64,000 bases of DNA from an uncultured Bacilli bacterium (GCA_934129945.1 CAKOXC010000001.1:236152-300151), one strand, 5' to 3'; shown: positions 46,869-64,000, counted from the first letter of the stretch. A program made the numbers and translations. Notes: generated from the sequence alone by a model not told the origin.

Positions 46869-46904
46869 GAAAATCAATCGTTTTTAAACGATTTATATAT
46901 ATAT

Positions 46905-46945
46905 ACTAGTAAGAAATCTTACTAGTATTTTTATTTTCTATTGAG
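46905..46945 (+). terminator. terminator after tRNA-Trp
   Basis: TACTAGTAAGaaatCTTACTAGTA perfect hairpin plus T-run; preceded by a second small hairpin aatcgtttttaaacgatt. Confidence 0.75.
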
Positions 46946-47032
46946 ACCATTATACACATAATTAATTTTTTTTGCAAACTGACTTGATTAATTTTTTCAT
47001 GAGAGTTAACATCTCAAACGAGGTGATTTTAG

Positions 47033-47296
47033 TTGAGTAAATATGTTTATGAGAATCATGAAGTTGAAGAAGGATTATTTGTAACATTACAATTAATTGA
47101 TGCTATCGACATGAAATATAGTTGTTGTTTTCCAGCTGATATTGAAAAGGATATTGAAAAATTGTCTAGGCACTTAGTTAAATATGTTGAAGGTGAAGAC
47201 AAACATCCTAATGTAGATATTGAAAATACAAAACTTATACAGCAGTTTATATATAATAAGGATGATATTGATAAAATAGAAAAAAATCACAAATAG
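47033..47296 (+). CDS. hypothetical protein (87 aa), TTG start
   Basis: RBS gaggtga 9 nt upstream of TTG; first gene after tRNA-Trp. Confidence 0.4.
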   Translation: MSKYVYENHEVEEGLFVTLQLIDAIDMKYSCCFPADIEKDIEKLSRHLVKYVEGEDKHPNVDIENTKLIQQFIYNKDDIDKIEKNHK

Positions 47297-47340
47297 TATT
47301 ATATAATGTATGTTATGTGTTATAATGTTTTTGCAGGTGG

Positions 47341-47748
47341 TTGTTTATGGATAAATTTGAAAGATTAAAAGATATAATTAGAAATAAAAAAAATGATTTT
47401 AATATAAATAATTTTGTATTGGATACTAAAGGTTCTAAATCAAATATAAGTGATTATGCTATTGATTATAAACAAATAGAAAAACATCCTTATATTATAA
47501 ATCTATTAACTTACGAAAAATCCATTCCTGAAAAGAAAAAAAATTATGGAAATAAACTTGATTATGAAATGAATAAGTATTATTTTCTTAAATTATATAT
47601 AAATAAAGAAGAAGAATTATTAGAAATAACATTAAATAAATCATCTACAAAAAAAGATATACATTTATTATTTTTGAAATATCTTGATAAAATAAACTTC
47701 TTGAATATAAATGACTTCTTAGAATATTTATTTAAAGTTCTTCAGTAG
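47341..47748 (+). CDS. hypothetical protein (135 aa)
   Basis: ORF with RBS ggtgg; no motif. Confidence 0.4.
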   Translation: MFMDKFERLKDIIRNKKNDFNINNFVLDTKGSKSNISDYAIDYKQIEKHPYIINLLTYEKSIPEKKKNYGNKLDYEMNKYYFLKLYINKEEELLEITLNKSSTKKDIHLLFLKYLDKINFLNINDFLEYLFKVLQ

Positions 47749-47845
47749 AACTATATAATAACTACTTTTAAATGAGTAGTTATTTTTGATAATTTAAATG
47801 TCGATTTTTGTGTTATAATTATATAGTAGTAAAAATTATTTTGGG

Positions 47846-47890
47846 AGTAGTATTATCCTTGGCTTTGGTGATACTACTCTTTTTTTGTTC
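47846..47890 (+). terminator. hairpin terminator
   Basis: GAGTAGTAT...ATACTACTC 9-bp stem then T7. Confidence 0.65.
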
Positions 47891-47898
47891 AAGAAAGG

Positions 47899-48171
47899 AT
47901 GGCTATTGTGAATATTAAGGAGATTGATTATGAAACTGATTTTGGAAATGTAAAAATTAAATTAAATGTTTTAATGGATAAGAAACATATATCAATAAGT
48001 ACTATGAGTAAATTAGCAAATGTTAAATATGAAATAGTGAAAAAATATTATTATGGTGACAATTATGCTTTTACTTCAGAAATACTTGCAAAATTTTGTT
48101 ATATTTTAGATTGCAAAATAGATGATATATTAGTATATGAAACCTCGAAAGACTATGTAAATCAAGGCTAA
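47899..48171 (+). CDS. XRE-family helix-turn-helix transcriptional regulator
   Basis: HTH_3 pattern ...LMDKKHISISTMSKLANVKYEIVKKYY... Confidence 0.7.
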   Translation: MAIVNIKEIDYETDFGNVKIKLNVLMDKKHISISTMSKLANVKYEIVKKYYYGDNYAFTSEILAKFCYILDCKIDDILVYETSKDYVNQG

Positions 48172-48501
48172 ACAAAGTAAAAGGAGTTTATAAAGAGTTT
48201 ATAATTTATCATATAAAGTGTTTGATTTTTATAAAGTCAAGGGATAAAATGATTATAATAAGTCATAATTATGAAGAAGGATGAAAAAAATCCTTTTTTC
48301 ATTTATTCCACAAATTGGGAATTGACTTAAAAAATACCGAATGCTATTATAGTCAACAAGTATTTAAAAACGGTCTTATATCGTAATACTTTGGGGGATT
48401 GAATAATATGGGTTGGATTAATTATCATAGAGATTATTATACTGATGAAAATCAACAAAGAACCTTCTCCCCTTTTTTTAATAATAGCAGTAATAATTAC
48501 A

Positions 48502-48545
48502 AGAGAGCAAACTGACTTGTTAATAGTCTTTGCTCTCTTTTTGTT
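48502..48545 (+). terminator. hairpin terminator (AGAGAGCAAA...TTTGCTCTCT) with the gcaaactgacttg motif in its loop
   Basis: 10-bp perfect stem, T-run. Confidence 0.6.
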
Positions 48546-48559
48546 TGGAGGAAGAAATT

Positions 48560-49024
48560 ATGAGAAAAAGAAGAACTGACTTTTTAAACGATTATGTTGC
48601 TAATCAGTATCCCATTGAAAAATTTAAAGAATTAATTTTTATAACACTTGATATTGTAGAAAATTTTTTACTTACATTAGAGTGTGGGTATAATTATAAT
48701 TCATCGTCAATTGCATCTTATGGGGAAAAATATGGTTCTTCTCAAAGAAATACTAATTCTAAAATTGAGAGCATTATAATTAAAAATATGAAAGATGAAG
48801 AAAAAATGAGTAATTTTTTAAACTGCTATTTCTCTGCTTACTCTACTTTAAATAAAGATGAAAAAGATATTTTTGATGCAACATTTGTTGATAGATTAAC
48901 GGATCAAGAAATAATTGGAAAATATAAAACATATTCAAAACATATTACACAAGTTAGGAAAAGTGCAATTATTAAATTTTGTTTAAAAAGTGGTTTAGAT
49001 AAATTTGTTGATTTAATTAAATAA
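48560..49024 (+). CDS. ArpU-family / sigma-70 region-4-like transcriptional regulator
   Basis: C-terminal LTDQEIIGKYKTYSKHITQVRKSAIIKF resembles region 4 HTH; ATG 48560 after ggaggaag (track 48530 start lies inside the terminator). Confidence 0.55.
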   Translation: MRKRRTDFLNDYVANQYPIEKFKELIFITLDIVENFLLTLECGYNYNSSSIASYGEKYGSSQRNTNSKIESIIIKNMKDEEKMSNFLNCYFSAYSTLNKDEKDIFDATFVDRLTDQEIIGKYKTYSKHITQVRKSAIIKFCLKSGLDKFVDLIK

Positions 49025-49159
49025 ATAATAACGAGTTTATAGGGATCTCGTTATAAAAAAACTAAATTTATAAGATAAGGAGGTGAAAATTTAGAAACTT
49101 GTAATCCATACTACTCTACAAGATTAGGTAAATTATATAAGGGTGATTGTTTAAAAGTT

Positions 49160-49903
49160 ATGGATTATCTTATTGAACAAGGAATTAAAGTTGATGCAAT
49201 TATAACGGATCCGCCATATGCTGTAACATCATATTCATGGGATCAAATTATTCCATTTGATCAAATGTGGGATAAGCTTTCCAAATTGATTAAAGATGAT
49301 GGTGCTATTGTCCTTTTTGGCAATGAGCCATTTAGTAGTAGTTTGAGGATGAGTAATCCTAAATTCTATCGTTATGATTGGAAATGGATAAAAACACAAG
49401 TAACAGGATTTCAAAATGCTAAATATCAACCATTAAGATGTTATGAAGATATTATGATATTTTCGAAATGTGGTGCTGTTGCATCTGCTAAACCACCAAT
49501 GAGATATTTTCCACAAGGTATTATTCCAGTTAATCTTAAAGTCACAACAAAACCTATAAATTATTTAGGTGATAAAAAAAGTGATGAAAAAGTTAGTTAT
49601 ACCCAAGAGGAAGCTAATTTTCCAAGAAATGTTATTCAATTTGCAAGAGAAACTGATTTATATCATCCCACACAAAAGCCAATTGTTTTGATGGAATATA
49701 TTGTATCTACCTATTCTAAACGAGGTGACCTAGTTTTGGATTTCACAAGTGGAAGTGGGTCTACCCTTTTAGCATGTGAAGTTCTAAATCGAAGATGGAT
49801 CGGAATTGAACTTACTGACAAATATTGTGAAGTTATAAAAAAAAGAATTCAAAAAGGAATTCAACTAAAATTACAATTTGAATACGATAATGAGAACACA
49901 TAA
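49160..49903 (+). CDS. DNA methyltransferase (N6-adenine/N4-cytosine, beta class); true N-terminus probably upstream
   Basis: DPPY catalytic motif then FxGxG (DFTSGSGST) at C-terminus; in-frame upstream codons 49079-49159 encode the family-typical KLYKGDCLKVM motif but contain no canonical start. Confidence 0.8.
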   Translation: MDYLIEQGIKVDAIITDPPYAVTSYSWDQIIPFDQMWDKLSKLIKDDGAIVLFGNEPFSSSLRMSNPKFYRYDWKWIKTQVTGFQNAKYQPLRCYEDIMIFSKCGAVASAKPPMRYFPQGIIPVNLKVTTKPINYLGDKKSDEKVSYTQEEANFPRNVIQFARETDLYHPTQKPIVLMEYIVSTYSKRGDLVLDFTSGSGSTLLACEVLNRRWIGIELTDKYCEVIKKRIQKGIQLKLQFEYDNENT

Positions 49904-50026
49904 TGGGAGGGATTTTTTTATAAACAAATTATTGTATAAAAAAAGTCGAAAAAACAAAGCACTCATTTTATTCGACTACTCATATTATAACAAAAATGCA
50001 AAACTATTGCTAGGAGCTATATACTA

Positions 50027-50266
50027 ATGGAAAGCATATTACAGGATGTTTTAAAATTAATAAATGACGCTATGGGATATTTAAGGTTGTTCGTGATTGG
50101 TGGAACAGCTTTTTTTGTCGCCAAAGACTACGCTCTTAAAATGGCATCAAGTGATGATAATCAAAAAGCAAGTTATGATCGAAAAATAAAAACTACAATA
50201 ATTGCAGGTGTATCTGCACTTGTCACAACTCAATTCGTATCATGGATTTTAGGATATTTTAAATAA
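50027..50266 (+). CDS. small two-TM membrane protein (79 aa)
   Basis: Hairpin of two hydrophobic helices; T4SS-associated small proteins are often of this type. Confidence 0.45.
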   Translation: MESILQDVLKLINDAMGYLRLFVIGGTAFFVAKDYALKMASSDDNQKASYDRKIKTTIIAGVSALVTTQFVSWILGYFK

Positions 50267-50682
50267 TGAATCAAAAAGATTTTAAAAAAACAATAAATGA
50301 AATTTTAACAGAGGGTAAAATTGAAGGTAAAGATATTAAAAATATTGATACATTAAAGTATTTACTTGATGATAGAAAAATTAACAAAAGTTTATATGAT
50401 GGTTTCACTAAAAATTATGAGATGGAATATGGTTCAAATCGTGATTATATTTTAATGAAAATACAGGATATGCTTTATAGATTACATTTATTAGTTAATT
50501 ATAATTTTGTTGAAAGATATGGAATAATTGATAAGAACAATATTAGAAATGCAATTAGTATTTTAATTGATAATGATGATATTGATTTTTATGATGCTGT
50601 ATCTTTTGATGATTCAGATTTTGAAATTGTTGACTTACAAGATTTTGATGTAAGAAACGTGCTATGTATAAAAAATATATGA
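50266..50682 (+). CDS. hypothetical protein (138 aa)
   Basis: ATGA overlap with upstream gene. Confidence 0.4.
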   Translation: MNQKDFKKTINEILTEGKIEGKDIKNIDTLKYLLDDRKINKSLYDGFTKNYEMEYGSNRDYILMKIQDMLYRLHLLVNYNFVERYGIIDKNNIRNAISILIDNDDIDFYDAVSFDDSDFEIVDLQDFDVRNVLCIKNI

Positions 50683-50957
50683 AAAAGAAAACTTGGCATT
50701 CATTCGTAAAAAGTCATAATTTAGTTAATCGAATTTATGATATGCTAGATTACTTCCACTGCTTTGATGAAGTAAAAAATGTGGAGTTAGCAAAAAATCA
50801 AATAAAAAATAAGATTCGAAGTATTTATTATGTTGAAACTCTAGCAAAATACTTTGATGATAAAAAAAATAAACATATAAAAAACATAGAGTTAAGATGT
50901 AATCTAATTGATTTAATAAATGATTTAGATTATTTAAAACAATATCTTTATAAATAA
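50664..50957 (+). CDS. hypothetical protein (97 aa)
   Basis: Overlapping ORF in operon. Confidence 0.35.
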   Translation: MYKKYMKKKTWHSFVKSHNLVNRIYDMLDYFHCFDEVKNVELAKNQIKNKIRSIYYVETLAKYFDDKKNKHIKNIELRCNLIDLINDLDYLKQYLYK

Positions 50958-51036
50958 AAATTTGACATATATTAAAATAAGAGTTAATATCTCCTAAAAA
51001 GAAGGTGATCTTATCAAAAAGAAAATTATTGGATTA

Positions 51037-51630
51037 TTGATTGGTTTATTAATCATTAGTATTATTTTTATAATAGGTTTATTTTTGTATAATTTCCATA
51101 ATAAATATGATTCAAAAAATAAAAATAATCCATCTGTTGTAGAAAAAAAGAATTCTGAGAATAAAAAAGCTGTTAAAGATGAAGTAAAAATCAAAGATGA
51201 AAATGTTGATAAAAAAGATGATGTGAATAATGACGATACTACTTCAAAAAACAATGAATCAAAAGAGACCAAAACTAATAATTCAAACAAATCAAATATT
51301 CAGTCAAACGAAAACAAAAATAACCAGAAAACAACAACTTCCGAAATAACTCAACCACCTGTTCAACAAGAAGAACAAAAGGAAGAATCGAATAATAATG
51401 TTAAAGCAAATAATCCGTGGGATATTCTTGGAATCACAGAAGATCAATATTATAATAAACCATTATATAGTTGGGAACGTGTAGATTTTTCAACATATGA
51501 AGAGTGTGCTAATTATGGAGAATCTTATAAACCATATTTAAATGGTGAAGAATTGTATCATTGCTCTACGGTTTCAAGTGCATCAGGCAAAAATCTAGGA
51601 TGGATGTTTCATACTGAGAAACTTAATTAA
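51037..51630 (+). CDS. membrane-anchored K/N/E-rich low-complexity protein with Cys-containing C-terminal domain; start uncertain
   Basis: TTG start in track; frame is open from 50998 after RBS aaggtga. Confidence 0.45.
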   Translation: MIGLLIISIIFIIGLFLYNFHNKYDSKNKNNPSVVEKKNSENKKAVKDEVKIKDENVDKKDDVNNDDTTSKNNESKETKTNNSNKSNIQSNENKNNQKTTTSEITQPPVQQEEQKEESNNNVKANNPWDILGITEDQYYNKPLYSWERVDFSTYEECANYGESYKPYLNGEELYHCSTVSSASGKNLGWMFHTEKLN

Positions 51631-51678
51631 TACTAAAAGACTTTTTAGAAGTCTTTTTTTGATGGGAGGAATGTATAA

Positions 51679-54177
51679 ATGAATAAATTAAGTAAAATAT
51701 TATTATTTGTTATAACAATTGTGGGAGCATTTTTAGGGATAAATAAAGTAGATGCTCGTACTTATGAAGGACAAATAAAAGCAGGACCTTATGTTGGAGG
51801 TCCATTTTATGTTATGCATACACGAGGAGAAAGCAAAATGTGGTTTAAAGGACAATTTATTGTTAGAACTAGCGATGGACATTTTGTTTATTGTGTGCAA
51901 CCGATGACGAAAATTAATTCAGATGCAACTTATGAGGTAACCACAGAGGATATACAAGCCGTAGCTAATATACCTTTAGATACATGGAATAAGATTTCAA
52001 AAATTGCCTATTATGGATATGGGTATAAAGATGCAACACATGATCATACTGATGATACATATTATTTAGCAGCACAAATGCTAATATGGAAATTAGCAGA
52101 TCCAAATGTTGATAGTTTTTTTACTGATACACTAAAAGGAAATAGAAATGATAGTATTTTAGCAGGACAAATGAATTCTATAATGGATTTAGTTAATAAT
52201 CATAATACAACGCCAAATTTTACTAATTTTCCAGATACAATGGTAGTTGGACAAAATATTAATATAAATGATTCAAATGGTGTATTAAATAATTATCAAA
52301 TATCTAATGTAGATAATGGTAGTGCAACGATTAATGGTAATAACCTATCTTTAACAGCAACTAATGTTGGACAATTAACAATTACACTTACAAAATCAGG
52401 TAATAGATATGGAAGCCCAATAGAACTTTATTATGCTACTAGTTCACAAAATGTAATTAAAAGAGGAGACATTGATCCTATTAGAATTGTAAAAAAAGTA
52501 ACTGTATTTGGTGGAGATGTAAAAATTCACAAAACAGACTCTGAAACTAAAAATAATAAAGCTCAAGGTGAAGCTACATTAAAAGGAGCAATATATGGTA
52601 TTTATAAAGAAGATGGTACAAAAGTAGGAACTATTACAACAAATGATGATGGTACTACTAAAAGTGATTATCTACCATCATTGGGAAGATATTATTTATT
52701 AGAAGAAAAAGCTTCAAATGGGTATAAATTAGATCCAAATAAATATTACTTTGATGTAACTCTTGATCAATTACATCCTGAAGTTCAAGTTTTTGAAGAT
52801 GTAATAAAAAGAACATTTCAATTTATAAAAGTATATGCAGATAATAAGACAGGGATTATGACTCCTGAAATTGGTGTAAAATTTGGAATATACAACAATA
52901 AAAATGAATTAGTTAAAACATTAATAACTGATGCACAAGGCAGTTTTGATATAACATTACCTTATGGTAAATATGTTGTAAAACAATTGACTTCAACTAA
53001 GGGTTATGAAAAAGCAAAAGATTTTACCATTGAAGTAAAAGAAGATGGTGGAATTGTAAAAAAAGTAATTGCAAATGCAGAAATAACTGCAAGACTTAAA
53101 GTTATAAAAATAGATAAAGATACTGGTGATGTTATAAAAAGATCAGGTATTAAATTCAAAATTATTAATGCAAAAACTAAAAAATATGTTAAACAAACAA
53201 TAACATACCCTAGTGCAAAAACAATTGATGTTTTTGAAACTGATGAAAATGGGATATTAATTACTCCATATCCACTGGAAAGTGGAACTTATTTCTTAGA
53301 AGAAGTAGATCAAAAAATAGATGGATATTTATGGAATAAAAATTCAGTTGAATTTACAATCGATGAAAATTCTAAATTAGTAAATGATGACGAATTTGGA
53401 ATTTTATATGAAGTTAAATTTGAAAACAAAGCAGTTAAAGGTAGCCTAGAACTAACTAAAACTGGAGAAAAAGTAGAATTAACTAATAAAGGTTATGTTT
53501 ATACTGAAATTAATCTTAAGGATGTAAAAATAGGATTATATGCTAATGAGGATATTTATGATTCTTTAGGTAATTTAAAATATAAGAAAGATACTTTAAT
53601 AAAAATCTTAATTACAGATGAAAATGGATATGCTAAAGTTGAAAATTTGTTTTTAGGTAAGTATTATTTACAAGAGATAGAAACAATAAATAATCATATA
53701 TTGGACAAGACTAAATATACTTTTGAATTAAAGTATAAAGATCAGTATACAAAAATTATAAACTATACAACTTTATTAAAAAATCATCTTCCAAAAGGGA
53801 CTCTAGAATTTACTAAATCAGATTTTTCAAATGATAAAACATTACCAAATACTTTGATTGAAATTTATACTGAAAATGATGAATTAGTATATGTTGGTAG
53901 AACTGATTCAAATGGTAAAATTATTATTAATGAACTACCACTTGGTAAATATTACATCATAGAAAAACAAGCACCTGAAGGTTATAAAATAAATCCTGAT
54001 AAGATGTGGTTTGAAATATCAGAAGATGGTAAAATTGTTAAAGCAATAATGAAAGATGAAGTTATAGAAGTTCCTAACACAGGAGTTAATGATTCTCATA
54101 TAATTGATATTATTGGTTTAGTATTTATTACTGGTGGTGTTGGATTTATTATTTATGATAAAAAAAGAAAAAAATAA
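51679..54177 (+). CDS. sortase-anchored surface adhesin/pilin-like protein with Cna-B/SpaA-type isopeptide domains
   Basis: Signal peptide; repeated prealbumin-like modules (G.Y.L.E...P.GY); C-terminal sorting signal VPNTG + hydrophobic stretch + KKRKK. Confidence 0.8.
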   Translation: MNKLSKILLFVITIVGAFLGINKVDARTYEGQIKAGPYVGGPFYVMHTRGESKMWFKGQFIVRTSDGHFVYCVQPMTKINSDATYEVTTEDIQAVANIPLDTWNKISKIAYYGYGYKDATHDHTDDTYYLAAQMLIWKLADPNVDSFFTDTLKGNRNDSILAGQMNSIMDLVNNHNTTPNFTNFPDTMVVGQNININDSNGVLNNYQISNVDNGSATINGNNLSLTATNVGQLTITLTKSGNRYGSPIELYYATSSQNVIKRGDIDPIRIVKKVTVFGGDVKIHKTDSETKNNKAQGEATLKGAIYGIYKEDGTKVGTITTNDDGTTKSDYLPSLGRYYLLEEKASNGYKLDPNKYYFDVTLDQLHPEVQVFEDVIKRTFQFIKVYADNKTGIMTPEIGVKFGIYNNKNELVKTLITDAQGSFDITLPYGKYVVKQLTSTKGYEKAKDFTIEVKEDGGIVKKVIANAEITARLKVIKIDKDTGDVIKRSGIKFKIINAKTKKYVKQTITYPSAKTIDVFETDENGILITPYPLESGTYFLEEVDQKIDGYLWNKNSVEFTIDENSKLVNDDEFGILYEVKFENKAVKGSLELTKTGEKVELTNKGYVYTEINLKDVKIGLYANEDIYDSLGNLKYKKDTLIKILITDENGYAKVENLFLGKYYLQEIETINNHILDKTKYTFELKYKDQYTKIINYTTLLKNHLPKGTLEFTKSDFSNDKTLPNTLIEIYTENDELVYVGRTDSNGKIIINELPLGKYYIIEKQAPEGYKINPDKMWFEISEDGKIVKAIMKDEVIEVPNTGVNDSHIIDIIGLVFITGGVGFIIYDKKRKK

Positions 54178-54799
54178 GAATAAAGATTTCAAGAGTCAAA
54201 TTTTAGTAATTGGCTCTTTTCTTATTTTAATTGGATTATTTATAATTGGATACCACATCTATTCAGATTATAATTTAAAAAGAATTGAAAAAGATAATGT
54301 ACAAGAATTTTTTGAAGAAGAACAAGTTGTTGAAGATATTCCACAGGAAAATAAATTTGTTGAAGTTGAAAACAAAAACATAAGTAAAACTAATTATAAT
54401 TATATTGCAGTATTAGAAATTCCTAAGATAAATATTAAAAGAGGTTTATCACAGGAAAAATATTATAACAATGTTAATCGTAATGTTGAAATATTAAAAG
54501 GATCTGATATGCCTAATATTTCTAAAGGAAACTTCATTCTTGCAGGTCATTCGGGATCAGGCAGAGTTTCATATTTTAAAAATTTAGATAAATTAGTAAT
54601 TGGAGATATTTCATATATATACTATGGTGGAATTAAATATACATATAAAGTGACTAATATTTATGATATAGAAAAAAATGGTACAGCACTTATTACAAGA
54701 GATTTAGACAAAACTACTCTTACTATGATTACTTGTAGGCATAACACTAATAAACAAATTATTGTTATCTCTGAGTTAATTAATCAAGAAAACTATTAA
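54155..54799 (+). CDS. class B-like sortase
   Basis: N-terminal TM; catalytic His in LAGHSG, TLTMITCRH cysteine motif; overlaps the adhesin's 3' end. Confidence 0.8.
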   Translation: MIKKEKNKNKDFKSQILVIGSFLILIGLFIIGYHIYSDYNLKRIEKDNVQEFFEEEQVVEDIPQENKFVEVENKNISKTNYNYIAVLEIPKINIKRGLSQEKYYNNVNRNVEILKGSDMPNISKGNFILAGHSGSGRVSYFKNLDKLVIGDISYIYYGGIKYTYKVTNIYDIEKNGTALITRDLDKTTLTMITCRHNTNKQIIVISELINQENY

Positions 54800-54859
54800 G
54801 GAGGAATTTTAATACAAATATTAGCAGTTAGTCAAGTAGAACAAAAATGGTATTTAGAC

Positions 54860-56164: not shown

Positions 56165-56436
56165 TGTATCTAATTCCTAAAAATATAAAAACTAAAAAAG
56201 AAATATTTAAAGGATTTGGAATACTTGAATGTATTGCGATTGCGATTTCATTTGGTATTGGTTATCTTTTTTCTTTCTTTATTACACAATATAAATTAAA
56301 AGTAATCTTTTTTTGTATTCCACCACTATTAATGTTTTTATTATTACTTCCTTTACCAAATGGGAGTACAGCATTATCTATTTTAAAAAAATTTTTAATA
56401 TTTAAAAAAAGACAAAGGTGTTATAAAGTAAAATAA
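56155..56436 (+). CDS. small two-TM membrane protein (VirB3-like position)
   Basis: 93 aa, overlaps upstream stop. Confidence 0.4.
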   Translation: MVLMYLIPKNIKTKKEIFKGFGILECIAIAISFGIGYLFSFFITQYKLKVIFFCIPPLLMFLLLLPLPNGSTALSILKKFLIFKKRQRCYKVK

Positions 56437-56533
56437 ATTATTAATTTCAATTTAATTTAATATAAATTGCATACATTGACATTAATAATTTCATAAGGTA
56501 TAATAAACGTGTATTTTATGAAGGAGTGAAAAA

Positions 56534-57136
56534 ATGAGAAAGAGAATATTAAGTGTAATTTTAGCAGGTATTTTAATTGTTGGATTAACTGGGTGTGGAA
56601 ATCAAAAAACAACTGATAGTAAAACAAATGATAAAACTAAAAATGAAACAGTTCAGAAATCCAAAGGGAATTGTGATGTATTTGAATGCATTAAAAAATT
56701 AAGTTCTGATACTACATATGAAAAAGTTAATGAAATAATTGGCTTTGAAGGTAAATTGGTTGATCAAAGCAAAGAGGGAGCAGTATCAACTTATAAGAAA
56801 TATGAATGGGAATTAACAGATGATACTTCTATAACTGTAAGATTAGATGAATTTAAAGGAAAGGTTACTGCTCAAATTTCATCAGAGTTTCCAAATGAAA
56901 TGATAAAAAATGATAAGGTTGATTTTTCTAAAGTAGATAAATTGAAAGAAAAAATAAATTCTAGTGATGGTTTAACTTATGAAGAGTTTGTAGAAATTGT
57001 AGGTGGTGTTGAAGGTACATTATATAACGTCACTACATTCTCAAATAAATATACTTGGGTTAACTCTGAAGGTAAATCTTTAAATGCAACTTTTAATAGT
57101 AATGGTAAGTGTACAATATTTAATGGAATAGTATAA
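56534..57136 (+). CDS. lipoprotein (paralog of 32441-33016)
   Basis: Lipobox LTGC; shared C-terminal domain. Confidence 0.7.
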   Translation: MRKRILSVILAGILIVGLTGCGNQKTTDSKTNDKTKNETVQKSKGNCDVFECIKKLSSDTTYEKVNEIIGFEGKLVDQSKEGAVSTYKKYEWELTDDTSITVRLDEFKGKVTAQISSEFPNEMIKNDKVDFSKVDKLKEKINSSDGLTYEEFVEIVGGVEGTLYNVTTFSNKYTWVNSEGKSLNATFNSNGKCTIFNGIV

Positions 57137-57312
57137 AAGAAATTTATATAATATGATAATTAACGACTAATATGTCGTTTTTTTGTTGGAGGTAAAATGT
57201 TAGAAAAGATTTTAGGAATAGTATTTTTACTATTCTTTTTTTTATTTGCAGTATGCTCGTGTATAGTATCAGGTGAATGTTCACGAGAAGAAGAAAAATG
57301 GAGGGATAAAAA

Positions 57313-57843
57313 ATGAGTATTTTGCAAGAATATGAGGAAATCAGAAAAGATATGGGAGCAACTCGTTATGATGCAATTGGTGATTATCTTAATGAAGTAA
57401 ATAAAAATCTAGATTCAGAATTATTTTTGTCTGATGTATTATATAAGGAAAAAGAATATAAGAAATTTGAATCTTGGTTTAATAAACAAATAAGTCCTTT
57501 TAAAATAATCAGTTTTAAAGATGAGAATTTTTCAGTTTTATTAGATCAAAGTGATTATTGTTATGACTGGGTTAATGAAATTAAGAGTAATATACCTTAT
57601 GGAGATGGTCATTGCTATAACGATGCCTTTTTTGAGTATTTAGAAAAATCATCAAGTTCACTAAATAATAAGTTAAATTATGATTCAGAAAATGGTATGT
57701 TTTGTGTTTATACCAATGATATAAGAATTGCAGATGAGGTTGCTTATAAGTTATCAAATTTATATAAAGATGAAAATAAAATGATTGAGTTAATTAAAGA
57801 AACTAAAGAAAAATATGGATATATATTTGATGTTCATATATAA
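57313..57843 (+). CDS. hypothetical protein (176 aa)
   Basis: ORF with RBS ggaggg. Confidence 0.4.
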   Translation: MSILQEYEEIRKDMGATRYDAIGDYLNEVNKNLDSELFLSDVLYKEKEYKKFESWFNKQISPFKIISFKDENFSVLLDQSDYCYDWVNEIKSNIPYGDGHCYNDAFFEYLEKSSSSLNNKLNYDSENGMFCVYTNDIRIADEVAYKLSNLYKDENKMIELIKETKEKYGYIFDVHI

Positions 57844-57930
57844 GGAGGATAAATTATAGATAAAAGAAAAAAATTAAAATATAATAATACACTATGGTTT
57901 GTTAATGTTTCGACTTATGAAAGTAAAAGG

Positions 57931-58212
57931 ATGAAATTAACAATCTCAAATAAAAATCAAGAGATTGAAGTGACGGCAGATTTAAGTGATGCTTATTTAG
58001 ATAAAGGTCATGTTTTTTTAGATCCTGATGTAAAAGATAACGGAATTTTAAAAGCCTTGAAAAAATCAAGAATATTAAAACAAATTGATGGAACTCTATG
58101 TTATGATTATAAATTAATTCCTGTTGCTTTACTTAATAATGGTATACTTCGTTCTTATGATTATTCAGGTGTATTAGAGCATTTAGAAACTATTTCTTAT
58201 AAGGAGGATTGA
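57931..58212 (+). CDS. hypothetical protein (93 aa)
   Basis: ORF with RBS aaggatg. Confidence 0.35.
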   Translation: MKLTISNKNQEIEVTADLSDAYLDKGHVFLDPDVKDNGILKALKKSRILKQIDGTLCYDYKLIPVALLNNGILRSYDYSGVLEHLETISYKED

Positions 58213-58227
58213 AATATAAATAATAGA

Positions 58228-58455
58228 TTGAAACTATATAACACTCATTTAACGTTAAGACTAAATAAAAAAGAAAAACAAGTTTTAAAAAGAAATGCTT
58301 ATAAAAATAAAATGACAATGTCTAATTATATCAGATTATTAATTAATATGGATAATAGATTAAATGAGATAAGAAAGAATAATATTAAAAATAATATATA
58401 TTCAGAGGAAATAACAAAAATAATGTTAAATATAGGGAGGGATTTAACTGATTAA
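58228..58455 (+). CDS. small basic protein, possible ribbon-helix-helix
   Basis: LTLRLNKKEKQVLKRNAYKNKMTMSNYIRLLI resembles an RHH strand-helix. Confidence 0.4.
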   Translation: MKLYNTHLTLRLNKKEKQVLKRNAYKNKMTMSNYIRLLINMDNRLNEIRKNNIKNNIYSEEITKIMLNIGRDLTD

Positions 58456-60808
58456 TAAGAAAAGTAAACTTCCCAAAAATATATCAGATTTTATTCCATT
58501 TCAAGATGTTTGGAATAACCTAGTTTATTTGGATAATAATAGAATTGTTGGTGGAATCAAAATCGGATCTATCAATTTACATTTATTATTTGATGAAGAA
58601 CAAAAAATCAAAGTTGCAGAACTTAAAAAGGTTTTAAATTCAATTGACTACCCTGTTAAAATTTTTAGTGTAGATAAACCTATTAATCTTGATGATAATT
58701 TAAACTTACTAGGTTCTAAAATTAAATCTGAAACTAATAAAAGCAAAATAAAATTACTAGAGGAAGATTATAATTTTGTCCAAGATTTAAATAATAAAAA
58801 ATGGGTTGTAAATCGAGAATTTTATTTAATTATGGAAGAAGATGCAACAAATGAGCAATTAATTAACCAGAAGCTAAATGATTTAATTCAGGAATTTATT
58901 TCTATTGGATTATATAGTGAAAGAGTTTCTAGTGAAGAGTGGCGAGATTTATTATATATTATTTTAAATCCTGTTACATCGCTCGACATTTTCAAAAAAG
59001 ATGCTACAGGTATAACTCGCTCATTTAAAGAGAAAATCGCCCCAAACGGCTTAAAAATCAATGAAAAGGATATAATTCTAGGTGATGCTTATGTAAGTGT
59101 TGTTACACTTCGAACATACCCATCTATTGTTGGTGTTGCATGGTTAGGTGCAGTTGCTAACGTTAACCATACTCGTATGGTTATGACAATCTCTCCTATG
59201 GATGCATTTGATATAAGCAATACTTTGAAAAAAAGTATGTCAGAAGTAAAATCAAAATTAATGAACACAAATAATTATAATGATGAGGTTGTATTAAATA
59301 ACCAGTTAGACGATTATGTTCAATTAGTGAATAGAATTGATCGTGAACATGAAAAGTTTTCATTGTTGACGGTCAATTTTTTATGCTATGGTGATTCGAA
59401 GGAAAATATGGAAAGAGCAAAAAAAGAATTAAAAACTACTCTTTCTGCTTATGGTATGGGTGGCACTGATTTAATGTTTGAGCAAGAACGATCATTAAAA
59501 ATGTGTTTACCTACATTGTATAGAGATTTAGAAAAAGAATTCGGACTTCCAATTCCTATGATGACTACTGCCTCATCTTTCCCTTTTATCTTTCAAACGT
59601 TGCAAGATGATGGCGATGCTATGATGATTGGAACTGATTCTCTTGGCAGTCTTTTATTCTTTGACTTATGGAAAAGAACTAGTAAAAGAAATAATTCAAA
59701 TGCAGTAATTATTGGTAAATCAGGTTCTGGTAAGTCTACTTTAATAAAAAAACTTATTCGAGGTAATTGGTGTCGTGGATCTAAAGTAATTGTTATAGAT
59801 CCTGAACGAGAGTATAAGGATTTATGTGAAAATATTAATGGTACATGGATTGATTGTGGAACAGGTTCACATGGAATAATTAATCCACTTGAAGTTAGAA
59901 AAGGTGCTGATGACTCTGATGAAGATAAAAAGAATTTTAATAATGATTTATCAAGACATTTTCAAACGTTTAGAACTTTTATAAAGTATTATCTACAGGA
60001 TCTAACTGCTTATGAGTTAACCAAAATTGAAGAAATACTTATAGAAGTATATAAAGATAAAAATATTGATTTTGATACTGACTTATCAAAATTATCAAGT
60101 GATGACTACCCTATAATGCAAGATTTATATAATAAGGTAGTTGAGACATTAAAACAAGCGAAAGCAAATAAAGAGGCACGAAATGTTATTGAGTCGTTAG
60201 AAAAAATTTCTTCAATGTTAAAAAAATCTACAATTGGAGCAGATGCAAGGATCTTTAATGGTCATTCAAGTATTAATGTGGATAATTCATCCGACTTTAT
60301 TGTTTTGGATATTCATAGCCTTGTTGATTCCGATGAAACAATATTAAGAACTCAGTTCTTCAATATATTATCTTGGTGTTGGAACGAAATAAGTCGTGAT
60401 AGAAATGAACAAGTAATTCTTGTATGCGATGAAGCACATTTACTTATTGATCCTAACAATAAAGATGGTATAGATTTTTTAAAAAGGACAGCAAAAAGAA
60501 TAAGAAAATATAACGGTTCATTATGGATTATTAGTCAAAACTTAATAGATTTTACTTCACAAGGCATTGAAAGATTTGGACAAGTTATTATAGATAATAG
60601 TTCTTATATTTTGGTCATGGCACAAGGACAAAAAGAAATTGAAGCAGTTCAAAAAATGATGAATTTATCAGAATCTGAAATACAATTCCTTACAACTGCT
60701 TCTCGTGGTCAGGGATTATTTGTTATAAGTCAAGATACTCGTTTACCAATTCAAATTCATTTACGAGAAGAAGAAAAGGAGTTGTTTGGTAATGCTGGTG
60801 GTCGTTAA
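58451..60808 (+). CDS. VirB4/TraE-family conjugation ATPase; probable non-ATG (ATT/CTG) start
   Basis: Walker A IIGKSGSGKST, Walker B LVCDEAHLL; frame is open from 58448 and encodes conserved VirB4 N-terminus KLPKNISDFIPFQDVW upstream of the first canonical start (TTG 58529); strong RBS AGGGAGGG at 58432-58440. Confidence 0.8.
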   Translation: MNKKSKLPKNISDFIPFQDVWNNLVYLDNNRIVGGIKIGSINLHLLFDEEQKIKVAELKKVLNSIDYPVKIFSVDKPINLDDNLNLLGSKIKSETNKSKIKLLEEDYNFVQDLNNKKWVVNREFYLIMEEDATNEQLINQKLNDLIQEFISIGLYSERVSSEEWRDLLYIILNPVTSLDIFKKDATGITRSFKEKIAPNGLKINEKDIILGDAYVSVVTLRTYPSIVGVAWLGAVANVNHTRMVMTISPMDAFDISNTLKKSMSEVKSKLMNTNNYNDEVVLNNQLDDYVQLVNRIDREHEKFSLLTVNFLCYGDSKENMERAKKELKTTLSAYGMGGTDLMFEQERSLKMCLPTLYRDLEKEFGLPIPMMTTASSFPFIFQTLQDDGDAMMIGTDSLGSLLFFDLWKRTSKRNNSNAVIIGKSGSGKSTLIKKLIRGNWCRGSKVIVIDPEREYKDLCENINGTWIDCGTGSHGIINPLEVRKGADDSDEDKKNFNNDLSRHFQTFRTFIKYYLQDLTAYELTKIEEILIEVYKDKNIDFDTDLSKLSSDDYPIMQDLYNKVVETLKQAKANKEARNVIESLEKISSMLKKSTIGADARIFNGHSSINVDNSSDFIVLDIHSLVDSDETILRTQFFNILSWCWNEISRDRNEQVILVCDEAHLLIDPNNKDGIDFLKRTAKRIRKYNGSLWIISQNLIDFTSQGIERFGQVIIDNSSYILVMAQGQKEIEAVQKMMNLSESEIQFLTTASRGQGLFVISQDTRLPIQIHLREEEKELFGNAGGR

Positions 60809-61473
60809 TGGATGATATTAAAAAGATATATGCATTCATAATTTCGGCACCTGTAATTATTATAATTTTTATTATTGCATTAGTAATTATGATTGCAGAT
60901 GGTTCTAATGGTGACCCATCAGCAGTTGCAGTTGGTAATCTATCAGAGTTTAATGCTCCATTTAAAATAGATGTCACTTACTCCATTACTTCCCTTTTTG
61001 GAACTCGAAATGATCCATTTACAAATGAAGAAATATTTCATAGTGGTATTGACTTATCAGCTCCCGAGGGTACTGAAATTGTGGCATCAGCAGGTGGAAA
61101 AATATATAAAACAGGATATGAACCTAATGGTTTAGGAAACTATGTAAAAATACAACATGATGTTAACGGAGAAACTTACTATACTGCTTATGGTCATATG
61201 TTGGATAATTCAATAGTTGTATCTGAAGGACAAATTGTTAAGTCAGGAGAAAAAATTGGAATAATTGGTTCAACAGGTCGTTCGACAGGTATTCATGTAC
61301 ACTTTATGCTTATGAGTCCCAACTGCTCTTATAATAAATCGGATCTTAAAGATCCTAAAAGTATTATTGATAGTGATTTAATAAGGAGGAATGAATATAA
61401 AAACAATAAATCAAAATACCCAAGCTTACAACCAATACAAGGACAGCAACCAAGTCAATCATTCGGAAGATAA
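60808..61473 (+). CDS. membrane-anchored M23 (LytM) peptidoglycan endopeptidase
   Basis: HSGIDL...GNYVKIQH...GSTGRSTGIHVHF zinc-site motifs. Confidence 0.8.
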   Translation: MDDIKKIYAFIISAPVIIIIFIIALVIMIADGSNGDPSAVAVGNLSEFNAPFKIDVTYSITSLFGTRNDPFTNEEIFHSGIDLSAPEGTEIVASAGGKIYKTGYEPNGLGNYVKIQHDVNGETYYTAYGHMLDNSIVVSEGQIVKSGEKIGIIGSTGRSTGIHVHFMLMSPNCSYNKSDLKDPKSIIDSDLIRRNEYKNNKSKYPSLQPIQGQQPSQSFGR

Positions 61474-61687
61474 TTTAATAGAAACCTATGCACTTCAGGT
61501 TGCAAGTGTACTTCATAAAACTGGTAAAGGTTCTTTTACAATTGATGAAATAATTGATAAAGTTAAACAAATTGTTAAGGAAGAAGAACTTATAGATCCA
61601 GTTATAATCGAAGTAAATCAAATACTTATAAATAAATATAATTATGAAATAATAAATACTAATATTAAGTTTAATATAGAAATATAG
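61391..61687 (+). CDS. hypothetical ORF (98 aa), overlaps M23 gene 3' end
   Basis: ORF only; 83-nt overlap makes start uncertain. Confidence 0.25.
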   Translation: MNIKTINQNTQAYNQYKDSNQVNHSEDNLIETYALQVASVLHKTGKGSFTIDEIIDKVKQIVKEEELIDPVIIEVNQILINKYNYEIINTNIKFNIEI

Positions 61688-62037
61688 ATAATGGTAAAGG
61701 TTCCTTGATCTAGTATTTATGCTTCAAATATTTTAAAGAAAAGGTTCTTTAATCTCCATTATAGATACTATATTTGTTATAACATCTGTTAGACAGTTAA
61801 CCCTATTTTTAAAGATTCGGTAAAGAATAGTGTTAGACAAAAGTATGACATTTAAGAATATGTATGACAAAGCGAAACTTTGGAAATCCTTTAAATTAGG
61901 GCTAAACTACCCACTGGGTAGTTGTTTGTCAGCCACACTTATCCTGATAAACAAAAGGATTAAAGTTGTGTCCTATTTTCAAATATTTTATTAAAATTAA
62001 TGACTCTAATTTGTGTCCACAATAAAACTATGGAGGT

Positions 62038-62219
62038 GATATTATTAATAACAATGGATGTACTTTTATTAAGTTTAGAATAGATGATAATCTAAACAAT
62101 GCATTTAAAAATATTCTTGAAAAAGAAAAAATAACTCAACAAGAATTATTAGAAAAATTGGTTAAAGAGTATGTTTTAAAGAATTTAAATTTATTAATAA
62201 GTAAGGATACTAAATAATG
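62038..62219 (+). CDS. unannotated ribbon-helix-helix (CopG/MobC-accessory-like) small protein; start codon unclear
   Basis: Open frame ...GCTFIKFRIDDNLNNAFKNILEKEKITQQELLEKLVKEYVLKNL... ending TAA 62217-62219; RBS ggaggtg upstream; no in-frame ATG (ATT candidates, or a 1-nt indel). Confidence 0.45.
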
Positions 62220-62639
62220 AAAGAAGATAGAATTACAATTAGAGTCACACCTGAAGATAAAAAAGAAATTGAATTACTTGCTGATAAGCATAAAATGAAT
62301 ATATCTAGATTTATTTATAGTACCATTAAAGAAAAAATGGAAATTGATAAACTAAATGATAGTCAAGAACAATTTATGCAACTATTTGATATTGCCTTTA
62401 AAAAAAGTTTTGATGCATTTTTTAAGCAATTAATGGTAGTAATAAATCGTATAGAGTTTAATAGCAGATGGTCTATTAAACAAACTGATATATTTATGAA
62501 TCAACTAAAAATTCCACAAACTGAAGATGAATTAAGTTTATCAATAATAGATCATCCTGTAACTGAAGTTGCACATCGTGAGGTACTTAAAGATATAAGG
62601 AAAATGTCAAGTAAGAAACATGAGTTAGATAATGAGTAG
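62217..62639 (+). CDS. MobC-like relaxosome accessory protein
   Basis: RITIRVTPEDKKEIELLADKHKMNISRFI RHH-like N-terminus; precedes relaxase, overlapping stop/start. Confidence 0.65.
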   Translation: MKEDRITIRVTPEDKKEIELLADKHKMNISRFIYSTIKEKMEIDKLNDSQEQFMQLFDIAFKKSFDAFFKQLMVVINRIEFNSRWSIKQTDIFMNQLKIPQTEDELSLSIIDHPVTEVAHREVLKDIRKMSSKKHELDNE

Positions 62640-64000
62640 TTCAAATATTGTGGTTCGTGTTAAGTACCAAAAATGTAATAATTTAAGAGAAAGTGTTAAC
62701 AAGACAATAAGCTATATTAGTGATAAGAAAAAGGCAGATGCTACATCAATTGATGAATATAATATTTTAAAAGACTATATGCAGTTTGCAAGTAATGATT
62801 CATATCTTTATGAAGATAAGGAGTCATTTTCGTGGTCTACCAATGGTGATATAGATGCAAGAAAAGATTTATCTGATATAAAAAAAATGGACTCTAAAGG
62901 AATTCTTTGGAGTCTTGTAATTTCTTTTCCACCAGATTTTGCAATTAACAAAGGACTTATTACTAAGGTAGATTATTATAACCTTACTAAGAATATAATG
63001 CCACAATTATTAACTGGTATGGGATTTAAAATGAATAATGTAACATGGTATTGCAGTTTACATCGTAATACTGACAATCCTCATTTACACATAAATTTTT
63101 TTGAACATCATAAAACTATTTCTAATCCTAAAGTTCCATATGATGTTATTTATAAATTGAAAAGTAATATTGCTAATTATTTAATTGATAATGAAAAATT
63201 TTATAAATTACGAGATGAAGAATTTAGATCTATAACGGGAAATATTTCCCTATCAGAGCTTACTAAAATTAAAAATCAAAAATTATTTGGAGACAAATAT
63301 CGAAGAGATTTGAATAAAATGTTGCTTGATTTATATAATGTACTTCCATCCAAAGGAAGATTACAATATAATTCAAAAAATATAGTTTCATATAAGGATC
63401 AACTTAATAATATAATTCAATACATATTGTTGCATGATTCTACAAAATATCAATATGCTAAATATATAAAGCTATTGGAGGAACATCAAAAGGAATTAAA
63501 TTCAATTTATGGAACATCATTATCTAATAAAAATAAATATTACTACAATAATCAACTTAATAAATTGTATTCAAAAATTGGAAATGAAATATTATCTAAT
63601 TATAAAATATATCGATCTATGGAAACTATGGAAAGAGAGAAAGAATTTTTAAAGAAACACATAAAAGATCTTAAATTTAAAAGTTCTCCATATAAAAAAC
63701 AGGAAAACATTGATAAGATAGCACAAGATTTAAATCATATATGCAATTTTGCAGGTCTTAATCATTTAGAAAAAAAATATGTTTTCAAAAACTGGGTTTT
63801 AAATTCTAAATATGATATTAATATTGATGCATTATTAAGTAGCATGGATAATTTTAATAAGGATATGAGTTCGACCGAGTATTATAACATTTTAAAAAAA
63901 TTGAATTATGATTATGACAGGTACTCTAAATATAAAAATAAAATGTTTTATCAGGAATTAAATTATAAAAAATTTATTAATCAAGCTATGAATTATTTAG
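62636..64000 (+). CDS. HUH relaxase (MOBP/MOBQ-type), 5' portion (continues beyond window)
   Basis: Histidine triad LHRNTDNPHLHINFF (HxDxxHxH motif III) about 150 aa from N-terminus; no stop before window end. Confidence 0.75.

Follow-up and report, generated by a model that had tools for sequence, protein, structure and literature searches.

A tRNA-Trp-splitting integrative and conjugative element of uncultured gut Bacilli with a putative replacement tRNA and pLS20-like transfer genes

The DNA stretch analysed here (the window) comprises 64,000 nucleotides from an uncultured Bacilli bacterium (GCA_934129945.1, CAKOXC010000001.1: 236152–300151), and its positions 46599–64000 appear to hold the leftmost ~17.4 kb of an integrative and conjugative element (ICE) with a length of about 30.5 kb, a value taken from the configuration found in the near-identical copy L097 (L numbers designate the other loci compared). 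Comparison with these loci makes it probable that the ICE is inserted within a host tRNA-Trp gene that it splits in two, that it bears an intact tRNA-Trp as a replacement, and that it carries transfer genes similar to those of plasmid pLS20. The novelty lies in finding tRNA-Trp splitting with a replacement tRNA in a conjugative element, as the strategy itself was already described for phages (in 2024) and a thioester-domain mating adhesin was already known from pLS20. The left boundary of the ICE comprises the following features:

46560..46598, + strand: orphaned 5' half (positions 1–39) of the host tRNA-Trp(CCA) at the left attachment site (attL), identical to the 5' half of the tRNA at the empty site
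46590..46598, + strand: common core CTCCAAAAC, crossover region of attL, consisting of the anticodon loop plus 2 nt
46599..46794, + strand: left end of the ICE, 196 bp that separate core and ICE tRNA and correspond to the P' arm of attP
46795..46868, + strand: intact ICE tRNA-Trp(CCA), found by ARAGORN and by the Rfam tRNA model (64.2 bits), with every stem paired
46903..46938, + strand: intrinsic-terminator-like hairpin past the ICE tRNA, with an 11-bp stem followed by a T run

Four ICE-free contigs of the same species (L008, L009, L010, and L014) carry an intact tRNA-Trp at this locus, with flanks 98.5–99% identical to those of the window, and the similarity of the window to these empty-site contigs ends at 46603. 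Neither ARAGORN nor Rfam called any tRNA at 46560..46598. The stretch from 46599 onwards, including the complete tRNA-Trp, is present in ten other copies, and the host 5' halves to which this one ICE left end is joined are of four different tRNA-Trp sequences, with at least six flanking contexts among them. At the opposite side, CTCCAAAAC links a single ICE right end with host 3' halves of seven different sequences, over at least nine contexts, and no tRNA was detected at any of the right attachment sites (attR) examined. The 9-bp CTCCAAAAC, which is repeated at attR (L097 14158–14166, plus other copies), is the sole sequence common to attL, attR, and the intact attB. As the core common to the three sites is of only 9 bp, the host tRNA-Trp is split in the anticodon loop and rebuilt at neither junction.

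The first-pass annotation of this DNA had set the left edge of the element at 46870, taking the tRNA-Trp at 46795–46868 as host DNA; the junction lies 271 bp further left, at 46599, inside the split host gene. An element that begins past the terminator, having integrated in the canonical way within or beside the 3' end of a host tRNA, would fit with this being the only tRNA of the window found by ARAGORN and with the terminator that follows it. However, in the ICE-free strains the tRNA-Trp lies 235 bp upstream and differs in sequence, and the similarity to these strains stops at 46603; the segment 46599–46868, tRNA included, moves with the ICE into at least six unrelated flanks; and the host-specific 3' halves at attR fit the orphaned 5' halves, not the tRNA-Trp at 46795–46868. 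Judging from these junctions, we regard the host-gene explanation as already refuted. A group I intron or a split tRNA of the Nanoarchaeum style was also considered and rejected, given that the two halves lie 30 kb apart, with a complete ICE between them and arm sites of the integrase flanking the break.

When the ends of the ICE were joined in silico, a 24-nt motif, TGGTGGCACTTTTGGTGGCA(A/T)AAGTAT, was found ~128 bp to the left and ~81 bp to the right of the core, the copy at ~128 bp being that of L097 14029–14056, in the arm supplied by the right end of the ICE. Within the window, the left end contains the paired arm-type repeats TGGTGGCAC-TTT-TGGTGGCA at 46671–46690, and the heptamer GGTGGCA occurs only three times along the whole 64 kb. 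The arrangement points to a lambda-like attP, in which each arm bears a pair of direct repeats at ~80–130 bp from the core. In addition, the core and the beginning of the P' arm (TCCAAAACCTTTGTT) recur in imperfect form as TCCAAAAGACCTTTGTT in the P arm (L097 13993–14016, ~165 bp left of the core), and this sequence could be a pseudo-core, a remnant, or an extra integrase site. The junction sequences place the recombination within the CTCCAAAAC core of the anticodon loop of the host tRNA-Trp, and the likely catalyst would be a 530-amino-acid tyrosine integrase whose gene lies at the opposite end of the element. Its action would leave the 5' half of the tRNA at attL and the 3' half ~30 kb away at attR, and precise excision should restore the host tRNA gene.

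No integrase, coupling protein, or replication gene is present within the 64-kb window; near-identical copies of the element supply its missing parts. An exact look-up of a ribbon-helix-helix (RHH) protein of the element in public assemblies led to long chromosomal contigs 98–99.4% identical to the window between 52.2 and 64 kb. The window holds the first 456 of the 478 codons of the relaxase gene; the remaining 22 codons are found in the near-identical copies, and loci L001–L006 contain the full 478-amino-acid gene. Past the relaxase, the copies encode a helix-turn-helix (HTH) repressor, a 357-amino-acid protein, and a VirD4 coupling protein (type IV coupling protein, T4CP; matches to T4SS-DNA_transf, TrwB_AAD_bind, and TraG-D_C), which lies ~3.6 kb past the window in L001–L006, and then cargo that differs between copies. 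A metagenome search with the conserved DUF4314 protein of the right end recovered L097, a single contig that joins the relaxase, the T4CP, the DUF4314 protein, an ArdC-like protein, a 90-amino-acid Xis-like protein, the 530-amino-acid tyrosine integrase, and attR. Over the relaxase-to-T4CP region, L097 is 99.6% identical to L002, which in turn is 99.4% identical to the window, and the copies with the downstream part share 98–99.6% identity with it. The integrase matched Pfam Phage_integrase (PF00589) and SAM_3 (PF14659) in a family search carried out on the L063 protein, 98.1% identical to that of L097. This protein (L097 12334–13926; L063 15862–17454) is unusually long, with ~125 residues past the catalytic tyrosine motif LRIYTHS that match no family. 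Serine recombinases were also considered as integrators and discarded, as those found in L022, L026, and L128 belong to other elements.

Taken over the window and its copies, attL (window), the integrase, Xis-like protein, and attR (L097), and the precise empty attB (conspecific contigs) are all present, as are a relaxase, a coupling protein, and VirB4 mating-pore genes. Capsid, terminase, and tail genes were not found; there is instead a type IV secretion system (T4SS) with its relaxase and T4CP, so the element is not a temperate phage. Megablast with the entire region found no match in PLSDB, from which we conclude that it is not a known plasmid either, and the DUF4314 protein had only two distant matches in IMG/VR. 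The first-pass proposal of an ICE with a Gram-positive T4SS that continues downstream of the window is thus borne out, and the three items it expected from an extended sequence, namely VirD4, the integrase, and the right attachment site, were all found in the near-identical copies.

The hosts are uncultured low-GC gut Bacilli. The GC content is ~25% over the entire window, and deposited sequences identical to its adhesin and VirB4 are labelled 'Mycoplasma sp. CAG:472', whereas the wider ICE family appears under the labels of uncultured Bacilli, 'Tenericutes', and Erysipelotrichaceae, from humans, ruminants, rabbits, mice, and chickens. The ICE is 98–99.99% identical among at least six host contexts, which differ in their tRNA-Trp sequences. 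Compared with L025 and L026, the ICE of the window is 99.1–99.6% identical, with syntenic flanks of only 64% identity, and compared with L019 it is 99.99% identical over 10.4 kb, with unrelated flanks. Such identities indicate that the ICE has spread horizontally in recent times. Marker proteins of the ICE were detected in 3330–5434 assembly blocks versus ~21 blocks for a neighbouring host gene.

These data bear on whether the element could be a decayed, immobile remnant of a conjugative element or of an integrated plasmid, which was the outcome that the first-pass annotation had named as fatal to its proposal. The absence of an excision product among the IMG/VR viral contigs and of a recognisable VirB8-like gene would agree with decay, and one relative (L068) is clearly degraded, with truncated integrase and T4CP genes. 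On the contrary, all the open reading frames (ORFs) of the ICE in the window are intact, insertion into many different tRNA-Trp genes is precise, empty sites exist within the same species, and both the identities across dissimilar flanks and the number of assembly blocks are those given above. Decay is therefore highly improbable, and the ICE appears active and very widespread.

The genetic organization of the left end suggests that the ICE tRNA forms a unit of promoter, tRNA-Trp, and terminator located ~200 bp inside attL, directly past the P' arm. A scan for terminators found two such sites versus 0.5 expected, while the sigma-70 promoter scan near the ICE tRNA (34 sites versus 31 expected) was uninformative in such AT-rich DNA. 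The tRNA sequence is identical in all ten other copies, including L017, where the tRNA shows no changes over its 74 positions and the adjacent arm shows 25 over 196. Two diverged lineages, L061 (T4CP 72% identical) and L138 (VirB6 86% identical), keep the same layout, with a host 5' half, the core, ~85 bp, two TTGTGCCA arm repeats, a promoter-like sequence, an intact tRNA-Trp, and a terminator, and their tRNA-Trp sequences differ from that of the window. When the ICE tRNAs of L061, L138, and the window were aligned with two host tRNAs, 9 of the 22 stem pairs had changed on both sides and were still paired. In the VirB6 relatives L131–L137 and L141, attL falls outside the 10-kb flank covered. 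From this pattern of conservation, the ICE tRNA looks functional and under selection.

The ICE tRNA would thus replace the host tRNA-Trp lost upon integration. As the rest of the host tRNA sequence need not match, the ICE could enter any host with a conserved tRNA-Trp anticodon loop. The tRNA-Trp(CCA) gene is usually single-copy in small Bacillota genomes. It may nevertheless be that these hosts keep another tRNA-Trp, the ICE copy serving then for extra decoding, as a decoy for anticodon nucleases, or being a passive capture from a former host. A countermeasure against tRNA-cleaving defences has been proposed as a function of phage tRNAs (PMC10865867), which leaves room for such roles. We find them rather improbable, as the ICE tRNA has the isotype and anticodon of the destroyed gene and lies directly beside attP, and it has remained intact, with compensatory stem changes, over three diverged lineages and unchanged beside an arm that varies; the usual single copy of the gene argues in the same direction. 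A stronger version of the replacement hypothesis, for which we see the balance tilting only slightly in favour, states that the only working tRNA-Trp in ICE-bearing gut Bacilli is that of the ICE, and that tRNA-dependent integration is an obligatory trait of the family and its first case in conjugative elements. It builds on three lineages checked in a family of at least 246 VirB6 clusters. If true, an essential component of translation would have been handed to a conjugative element, and attP, freed from matching the host tRNA, would allow a wider host range.

The strategy suggested by these sequences matches the 'tRNA-dependent lysogeny' described for the temperate actinobacteriophages Fionnbharth, cluster L, and Gaia, and for the Lactobacillus johnsonii prophage Lj965 (Guerrero-Bustamante & Hatfull 2024, PMC10865867), the ICE being otherwise of an ordinary kind. 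As in those phages, a tyrosine integrase with arm-type sites around the core acts on an attB located in a tRNA anticodon loop, the core is short (~8–10 bp in the phages, 9 bp here), the tRNA is rebuilt at neither junction, and the element carries a tRNA whose isotype is the same, in this case tRNA-Trp. Unlike them, the element is conjugative, targets tRNA-Trp in low-GC Bacilli, has its tRNA directly adjoining attP, and occurs as one element in many host species with different tRNA-Trp sequences. Conjugative elements are not mentioned in that work (PMC10865867), and no report of an ICE that splits a tRNA gene and carries its own copy was found in the literature searched, an absence that is no proof; nor was any found there for 'Mycoplasma sp. 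CAG' conjugative elements. Judging by title, an ICE is the subject of none of the 20 papers listed, out of 23 found, with the term 'tRNA-dependent lysogeny'. To split an essential tRNA gene and supply a spare would not be confined to mycobacteriophages but be shared by a conjugative-element family widespread in human and animal guts. A reason could be that the need for the universally conserved anticodon loop alone lets one ICE enter hosts with differing tRNA-Trp sequences, of which at least seven variants were seen. The module of integrase, attP, and tRNA might also serve as a genetic tool for low-GC Bacilli that are uncultured or hard to manipulate.

In canonical elements of the Islander type, attP contains the tRNA's 3' part, and the gene is regenerated (PMC4383910). 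Islands and ICEs of this type share with the present element the tyrosine integrase, the tRNA-gene target, and a displaced tRNA fragment at one end (PMC4383910). In contrast, our ICE carries only 9 bp of the tRNA and a separate entire tRNA gene, and its integrase adjoins the displaced 3' half rather than the intact tRNA, so that island finders keyed to a regenerated tRNA plus a displaced 3' fragment would misplace or miss such elements. The degraded relative L068 (9232–17756, − strand) keeps a C-terminal piece of the integrase and a T4CP truncated at its N-terminus. On its flanks are an intact tRNA-Trp and a direct repeat that spans the entire 3' half of that tRNA (core plus 35 nt). It looks like the canonical tRNA-regenerating form, and may bear on how both strategies are related.

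All sizeable ORFs from 46.9 kb to the end of the window are on the + strand, and Pfam searches and the ORF listing located every gene that the first-pass annotation had named for this region, with the changes of family noted below. The genes of the mating channel and of the relaxosome are:

50027..50266, + strand: 79-amino-acid protein with two transmembrane (TM) segments, candidate VirB2/pilin-like subunit of the T4SS (weak Mbov_0395 match, E 0.0024)
54860..56164, + strand: VirB6-like polytopic channel protein (Pfam TrbL_4, 84.4 bits)
56155..56436, + strand: PrgI/VirB3-like protein with two TM segments (Pfam PrgI, 26.7 bits, cutoff 27)
58529..60808, + strand: VirB4-type T4SS ATPase (Pfam P-loop_TraG, AAA_10, and DUF87)
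60808..61473, + strand: M23 peptidoglycan hydrolase, N-terminal TM segment, possible VirB1-like role (Pfam Peptidase_M23, 90.7 bits)
61905..61923, + strand: perfect, GC-containing 9-bp hairpin AACTACCCA-c-TGGGTAGTT in a 350-bp non-coding gap upstream of the relaxosome genes
62041..62217, + strand: small RHH protein of ~58 amino acids, Aux1-like (open frame with a GGAGGTG ribosome-binding site)
62217..62639, + strand: 140-amino-acid RHH accessory protein, Aux2-like (Pfam NikA-like, 30.3 bits, cutoff 27)
62632..64000, + strand: MobL-family relaxase, 456 of 478 codons (Pfam MobL PF18555, 88.4 bits, cutoff 28.5)

The VirB6-like protein, which has homologues in 246 clusters at E ≤ 1e-20, also gave sub-threshold matches to the NCBIfam models pLS20_p028, MMCAP2_0566, and Mbov_0396, and the PrgI-like gene follows it directly in all relatives. 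The best NCBIfam match of VirB4 is Mbov_0397, the VirB4 family of Mycoplasma ICEs (523 bits, cutoff 590), and its identity to plasmid-borne relatives does not exceed 33%. The VirB6-like protein, VirB4, and the M23 hydrolase named in the first-pass annotation were all supported by Pfam matches. The relaxase carries the predicted histidine triad HRNTDNPHLHINFF and belongs to the MobL family, with NCBIfam MobP3 and MobP2 matches below threshold only, and it is just 25–29% identical to plasmid relaxases. The protein upstream, previously called MobC-like, is an RHH protein of the NikA-like family. The small RHH ORF has no ATG, GTG, or TTG start and probably begins at ATT; its peptide is found with 44–100% identity in at least 20 related loci, some with a Met start, and it is called as a gene in relatives.

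The MobL domain and the RHH accessory genes directly upstream of the relaxase correspond to a relaxosome of the pLS20 type, for which the order oriT-aux1-aux2-relaxase was described (PMC5675868); the labels Aux1 and Aux2 are assigned here by position. By analogy with pLS20, the two RHH proteins and the relaxase would nick an origin of transfer (oriT) upstream of their genes, and the VirD4 protein encoded past the window would feed the DNA to a minimal Gram-positive T4SS made of the 79-amino-acid pilin-like protein, the VirB6-like and PrgI/VirB3-like proteins, VirB4, and the M23 wall hydrolase.

In addition to the MobL relaxase located after two RHH genes and a non-coding oriT-type region, the ICE shares with the Bacillus subtilis plasmid pLS20 (RelLS20, Aux1/Aux2, TIEpLS20) a p028-type VirB6-like protein and, within the conjugation operon, an adhesin joining Cna/SpaA domains to a thioester domain (TED; class II in pLS20 and probably so here), its Cys and Gln being at residues 72 and 257 here and 68 and 256 in pLS20 (PMC8092201). 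In contrast to this plasmid, the ICE is integrative, with a tyrosine integrase and att sites, and the sequence identity to pLS20-type plasmids is low, as the values for relaxase and VirB4 given above indicate. With the ICEs of Mycoplasma bovis and M. agalactiae it shares the best-matching VirB4 family, the sub-threshold VirB6-like and pilin-like matches, and hosts from related low-GC lineages. Nevertheless, all the scores against those models were below cutoff (VirB4 523 versus 590, the others far lower). Mycoplasma ICEs use a DDE transposase with little insertion-site preference; the present element instead encodes a tyrosine integrase, targets tRNA-Trp strictly, and also has a MobL relaxase and an adhesin with sortase anchoring. 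By sequence, then, the VirB4 and VirB6-like proteins are closest to those of Mycoplasma ICEs, and the machinery as a whole appears to be of the pLS20 / Mycoplasma-ICE kind.

Two genes embedded among those of the T4SS encode a surface adhesin and its sortase:

51679..54177, + strand: 832-amino-acid surface adhesin with signal peptide, TED, five SpaA/Cna-B domains, and a VPNTG sorting signal
54134..54799, + strand: dedicated sortase, whose gene overlaps the adhesin gene at the 3' end of the latter (Pfam Sortase, 67.9 bits)

The adhesin matched Pfam TED (34.3 bits, cutoff 22) and five times SpaA, and it ends in VPNTG followed by a hydrophobic stretch and KKRKK. Its size, SpaA/Cna-B domains, sorting signal, and position inside the module had been correctly recognised in the first-pass annotation, as had the overlap with the sortase gene, whereas the N-terminal thioester domain had been missed. 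Cys72, in the motif VYCVQP, is the single cysteine of the protein, and Gln257 belongs to the motif SSQNVI. Neither residue varies among 11 aligned sequences, and SaTIE-TED has its Cys and Gln motifs at the corresponding positions. A profile of the N-terminal domain aligned positions 16–266 with residues 14–252 of the 253 in the class II SaTIE-TED chain 6FX6 (E 4.7e-16), and the best PDB match of the entire adhesin was BaTIE (6FWV). These matches support a TED adhesin, probably of class II, with a predicted Cys72–Gln257 thioester; class II TEDs such as those of BaTIE, SaTIE, and EfmTIE86 have an additional beta-sandwich and a slipknot.

The sortase scored 57.3 against the general model TIGR01076 (cutoff 39.35), and below cutoff against every class model, with the best values for class C (69.7, cutoff 160) and SrtD (65.7, cutoff 140). 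The class B model was absent among its matches, so that the earlier class-B-like label should be dropped. Its His and the Cys of the TLxTC motif align with those of Staphylococcus aureus SrtA, in an alignment that extends only to that Cys. The catalytic Arg, usually ~13 residues past the Cys, has no obvious counterpart; the sequence reads CRHNTNKQIIV, with an Arg directly after the Cys.

In relatives with 59–86% VirB6 identity, the gene order is shared: HTH_26, methyltransferase, 79-amino-acid protein (at the same position in all relatives examined), TED/SpaA adhesin, sortase, VirB6-like, and PrgI-like, followed by VirB4, M23, RHH proteins, and MobL, with the coupling protein downstream where the loci reach it. 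This conserved order indicates that the methyltransferase, the adhesin, and the sortase are core genes of the family and not cargo. In pLS20, the class II TED adhesin is encoded inside the conjugation operon and is required for efficient mating (PMC8092201). By analogy, the TED adhesin, anchored to the wall at VPNTG by the ICE sortase, would hold the mating pair covalently through Cys72–Gln257.

An alternative is that the adhesin and the sortase are host-colonisation cargo that binds mucosal or dietary ligands in the gut. Fibrinogen is among the host proteins bound by pathogen TEDs (reviewed in PMC8092201), and a homologous pair is found in a chromosomal context foreign to any ICE: L126 (10001–11967) and L127 encode a 496-amino-acid TED/SpaA adhesin, with a TED 31% identical, and an overlapping 167-amino-acid sortase directly after rplM-rpsI. 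From this setting, the adhesin and sortase can be seen as a portable two-gene cassette. We consider host colonisation possible yet unlikely, given that the pair sits between T4SS genes family-wide, down to 59% VirB6 identity, while the real cargo varies by copy, and that the adhesin needed for efficient conjugation in pLS20 occupies the same kind of position (PMC8092201). Concerning the mating function, its proposal as a new arrangement in the first-pass annotation has to be narrowed, as a class II TED/Cna adhesin in a conjugation operon was known from pLS20; TIEpLS20 has no sorting signal and pLS20 no sortase (PMC8092201), and the VPNTG signal and the dedicated sortase of the ICE remain as the only difference. 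In this sense, the anchored adhesin extends the pLS20 finding of covalent thioester adhesins in conjugation. The parallel with PrgB of the Enterococcus plasmid pCF10 is one of functional analogy only, both being sortase-anchored adhesins encoded in Gram-positive conjugation operons; the domain architecture of PrgB is unrelated to the TED plus SpaA of the ICE adhesin.

Several points weigh against the proposed combination of a split tRNA-Trp, a replacement tRNA, and pLS20-like transfer. The whole of it derives from sequence comparison. The attR and the integrase were seen in near-identical copies, the copy in the window ending in the relaxase gene, and both the split tRNA-Trp as sole host copy and the need for the ICE tRNA are putative. 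No circular form was seen: the reconstructed attP junction ...AGGAGTTTTAATATC-CTCCAAAAC-CTTTGTTATAAAAG... was not found in the IMG/VR viral contigs, the sole collection scanned. With regard to transfer, no VirB8-like component was recognised among the ICE proteins, and the hairpin at 61905..61923 as part of oriT is a guess made by analogy, a candidate by inference only. As for the adhesin and the sortase, the conserved Arg of SrtA-type enzymes was not aligned, and the ~31%-identical pair beside rplM-rpsI, in a plain chromosomal setting, implies that such a pair is not intrinsically a mating device.

The remaining genes of the ICE within the window encode regulators, a methyltransferase, and small proteins:

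47033..47748, + strand: two conserved ICE genes, for proteins of 87 and 135 amino acids (no Pfam match)
47899..48171, + strand: XRE/Cro-type HTH regulator (Pfam HTH_26, E 1.3e-13), its position kept in relatives
48530..49024, + strand: possible ArpU/sigma-like regulator (weak; no Pfam match)
49160..49903, + strand: orphan beta-class N6/N4 DNA methyltransferase (Pfam N6_N4_Mtase, 99.7 bits)
50266..51630, + strand: three small ICE proteins of 138, 97, and 197 amino acids (low-complexity Pfam matches only)
56534..57136, + strand: lipoprotein of 200 amino acids with an LTGC lipobox (ORF listing)
57313..57843, + strand: Imm51-family protein of 176 amino acids (Pfam Imm51, 50.5 bits)
within block 56534..58455, + strand: 93-amino-acid protein and possible 75-amino-acid RHH protein (NikA-like 26.8 bits, cutoff 27)

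The 87-amino-acid protein was found in 5434 assembly blocks, always at the ICE's left end. The XRE regulator of the first-pass annotation was recovered as HTH_26, and its lipoprotein through the lipobox; the ArpU-like label did not hold, as TIGR01637 (phage_arpU) scored 18.7 bits against a cutoff of 43.1. The methyltransferase, already described there as an orphan of the beta class, shows DPPY near the N-terminus and FTSGSG near the C-terminus, in the motif order of that class, and no restriction enzyme gene adjoins it; its position is also kept in the relatives with 59–86% identity in the VirB6-like protein. Together with the ArdC-like protein of the right end, it would shield incoming DNA from restriction. 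The 197-amino-acid protein has an N-terminal TM segment and a low-complexity linker. The Imm51 gene within the T4SS operon is conserved in relatives, and the 357-amino-acid protein between the repressor and the T4CP (L001–L006 12450–13523) showed only a faint WapI-like immunity match.

The cargo of the ICE varies by copy (L001 17614–20423; L006 16998–18920; L003–L005 ~16000–20423; L138 11507–14480; L139 9130–11293), and tetracycline-resistance and anti-phage genes occur among the copies. A HamA-like gene is accompanied by a helicase gene in one copy (Hachiman-like), others carry PLD and ABC/FtsX transporter genes, and one cargo includes a GTPase of the ribosomal-protection tetracycline-resistance type with PadR and glyoxalase genes. 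In addition, relatives contain, inside the T4SS operon after the PrgI-like gene, either a type I restriction-modification methylase with its specificity subunit or an EcoRI-type methylase with GmrSD.

Finally, some observations concern the host loci. A gene with a Bro-N domain lies between those of a SleB-like hydrolase and a LysM amidase in L009 (5013–5846), L010 (10683–11516), and L014 (3295–4128), and in L026 (3386–7759) a Bro-N gene is accompanied by an HTH_36 gene and a 530-amino-acid large serine recombinase; the insertion appears to be another small integrative element, unrelated to the ICE, at a neighbouring locus. In the commonest hosts, the target tRNA-Trp is a few kb from a gene-free stretch of ~5 kb (~280–5540 in L017, L020, L021, L023, and L024; ~2125–7648 in L018), which by its size and absence of ORFs is probably an rRNA operon. 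The window also contains a T-box leader (Rfam RF00230, 117 bits) at 4130–4311 (+ strand), upstream of a 512-amino-acid ORF at 4346–5884, a case of ordinary host regulation unrelated to the ICE.

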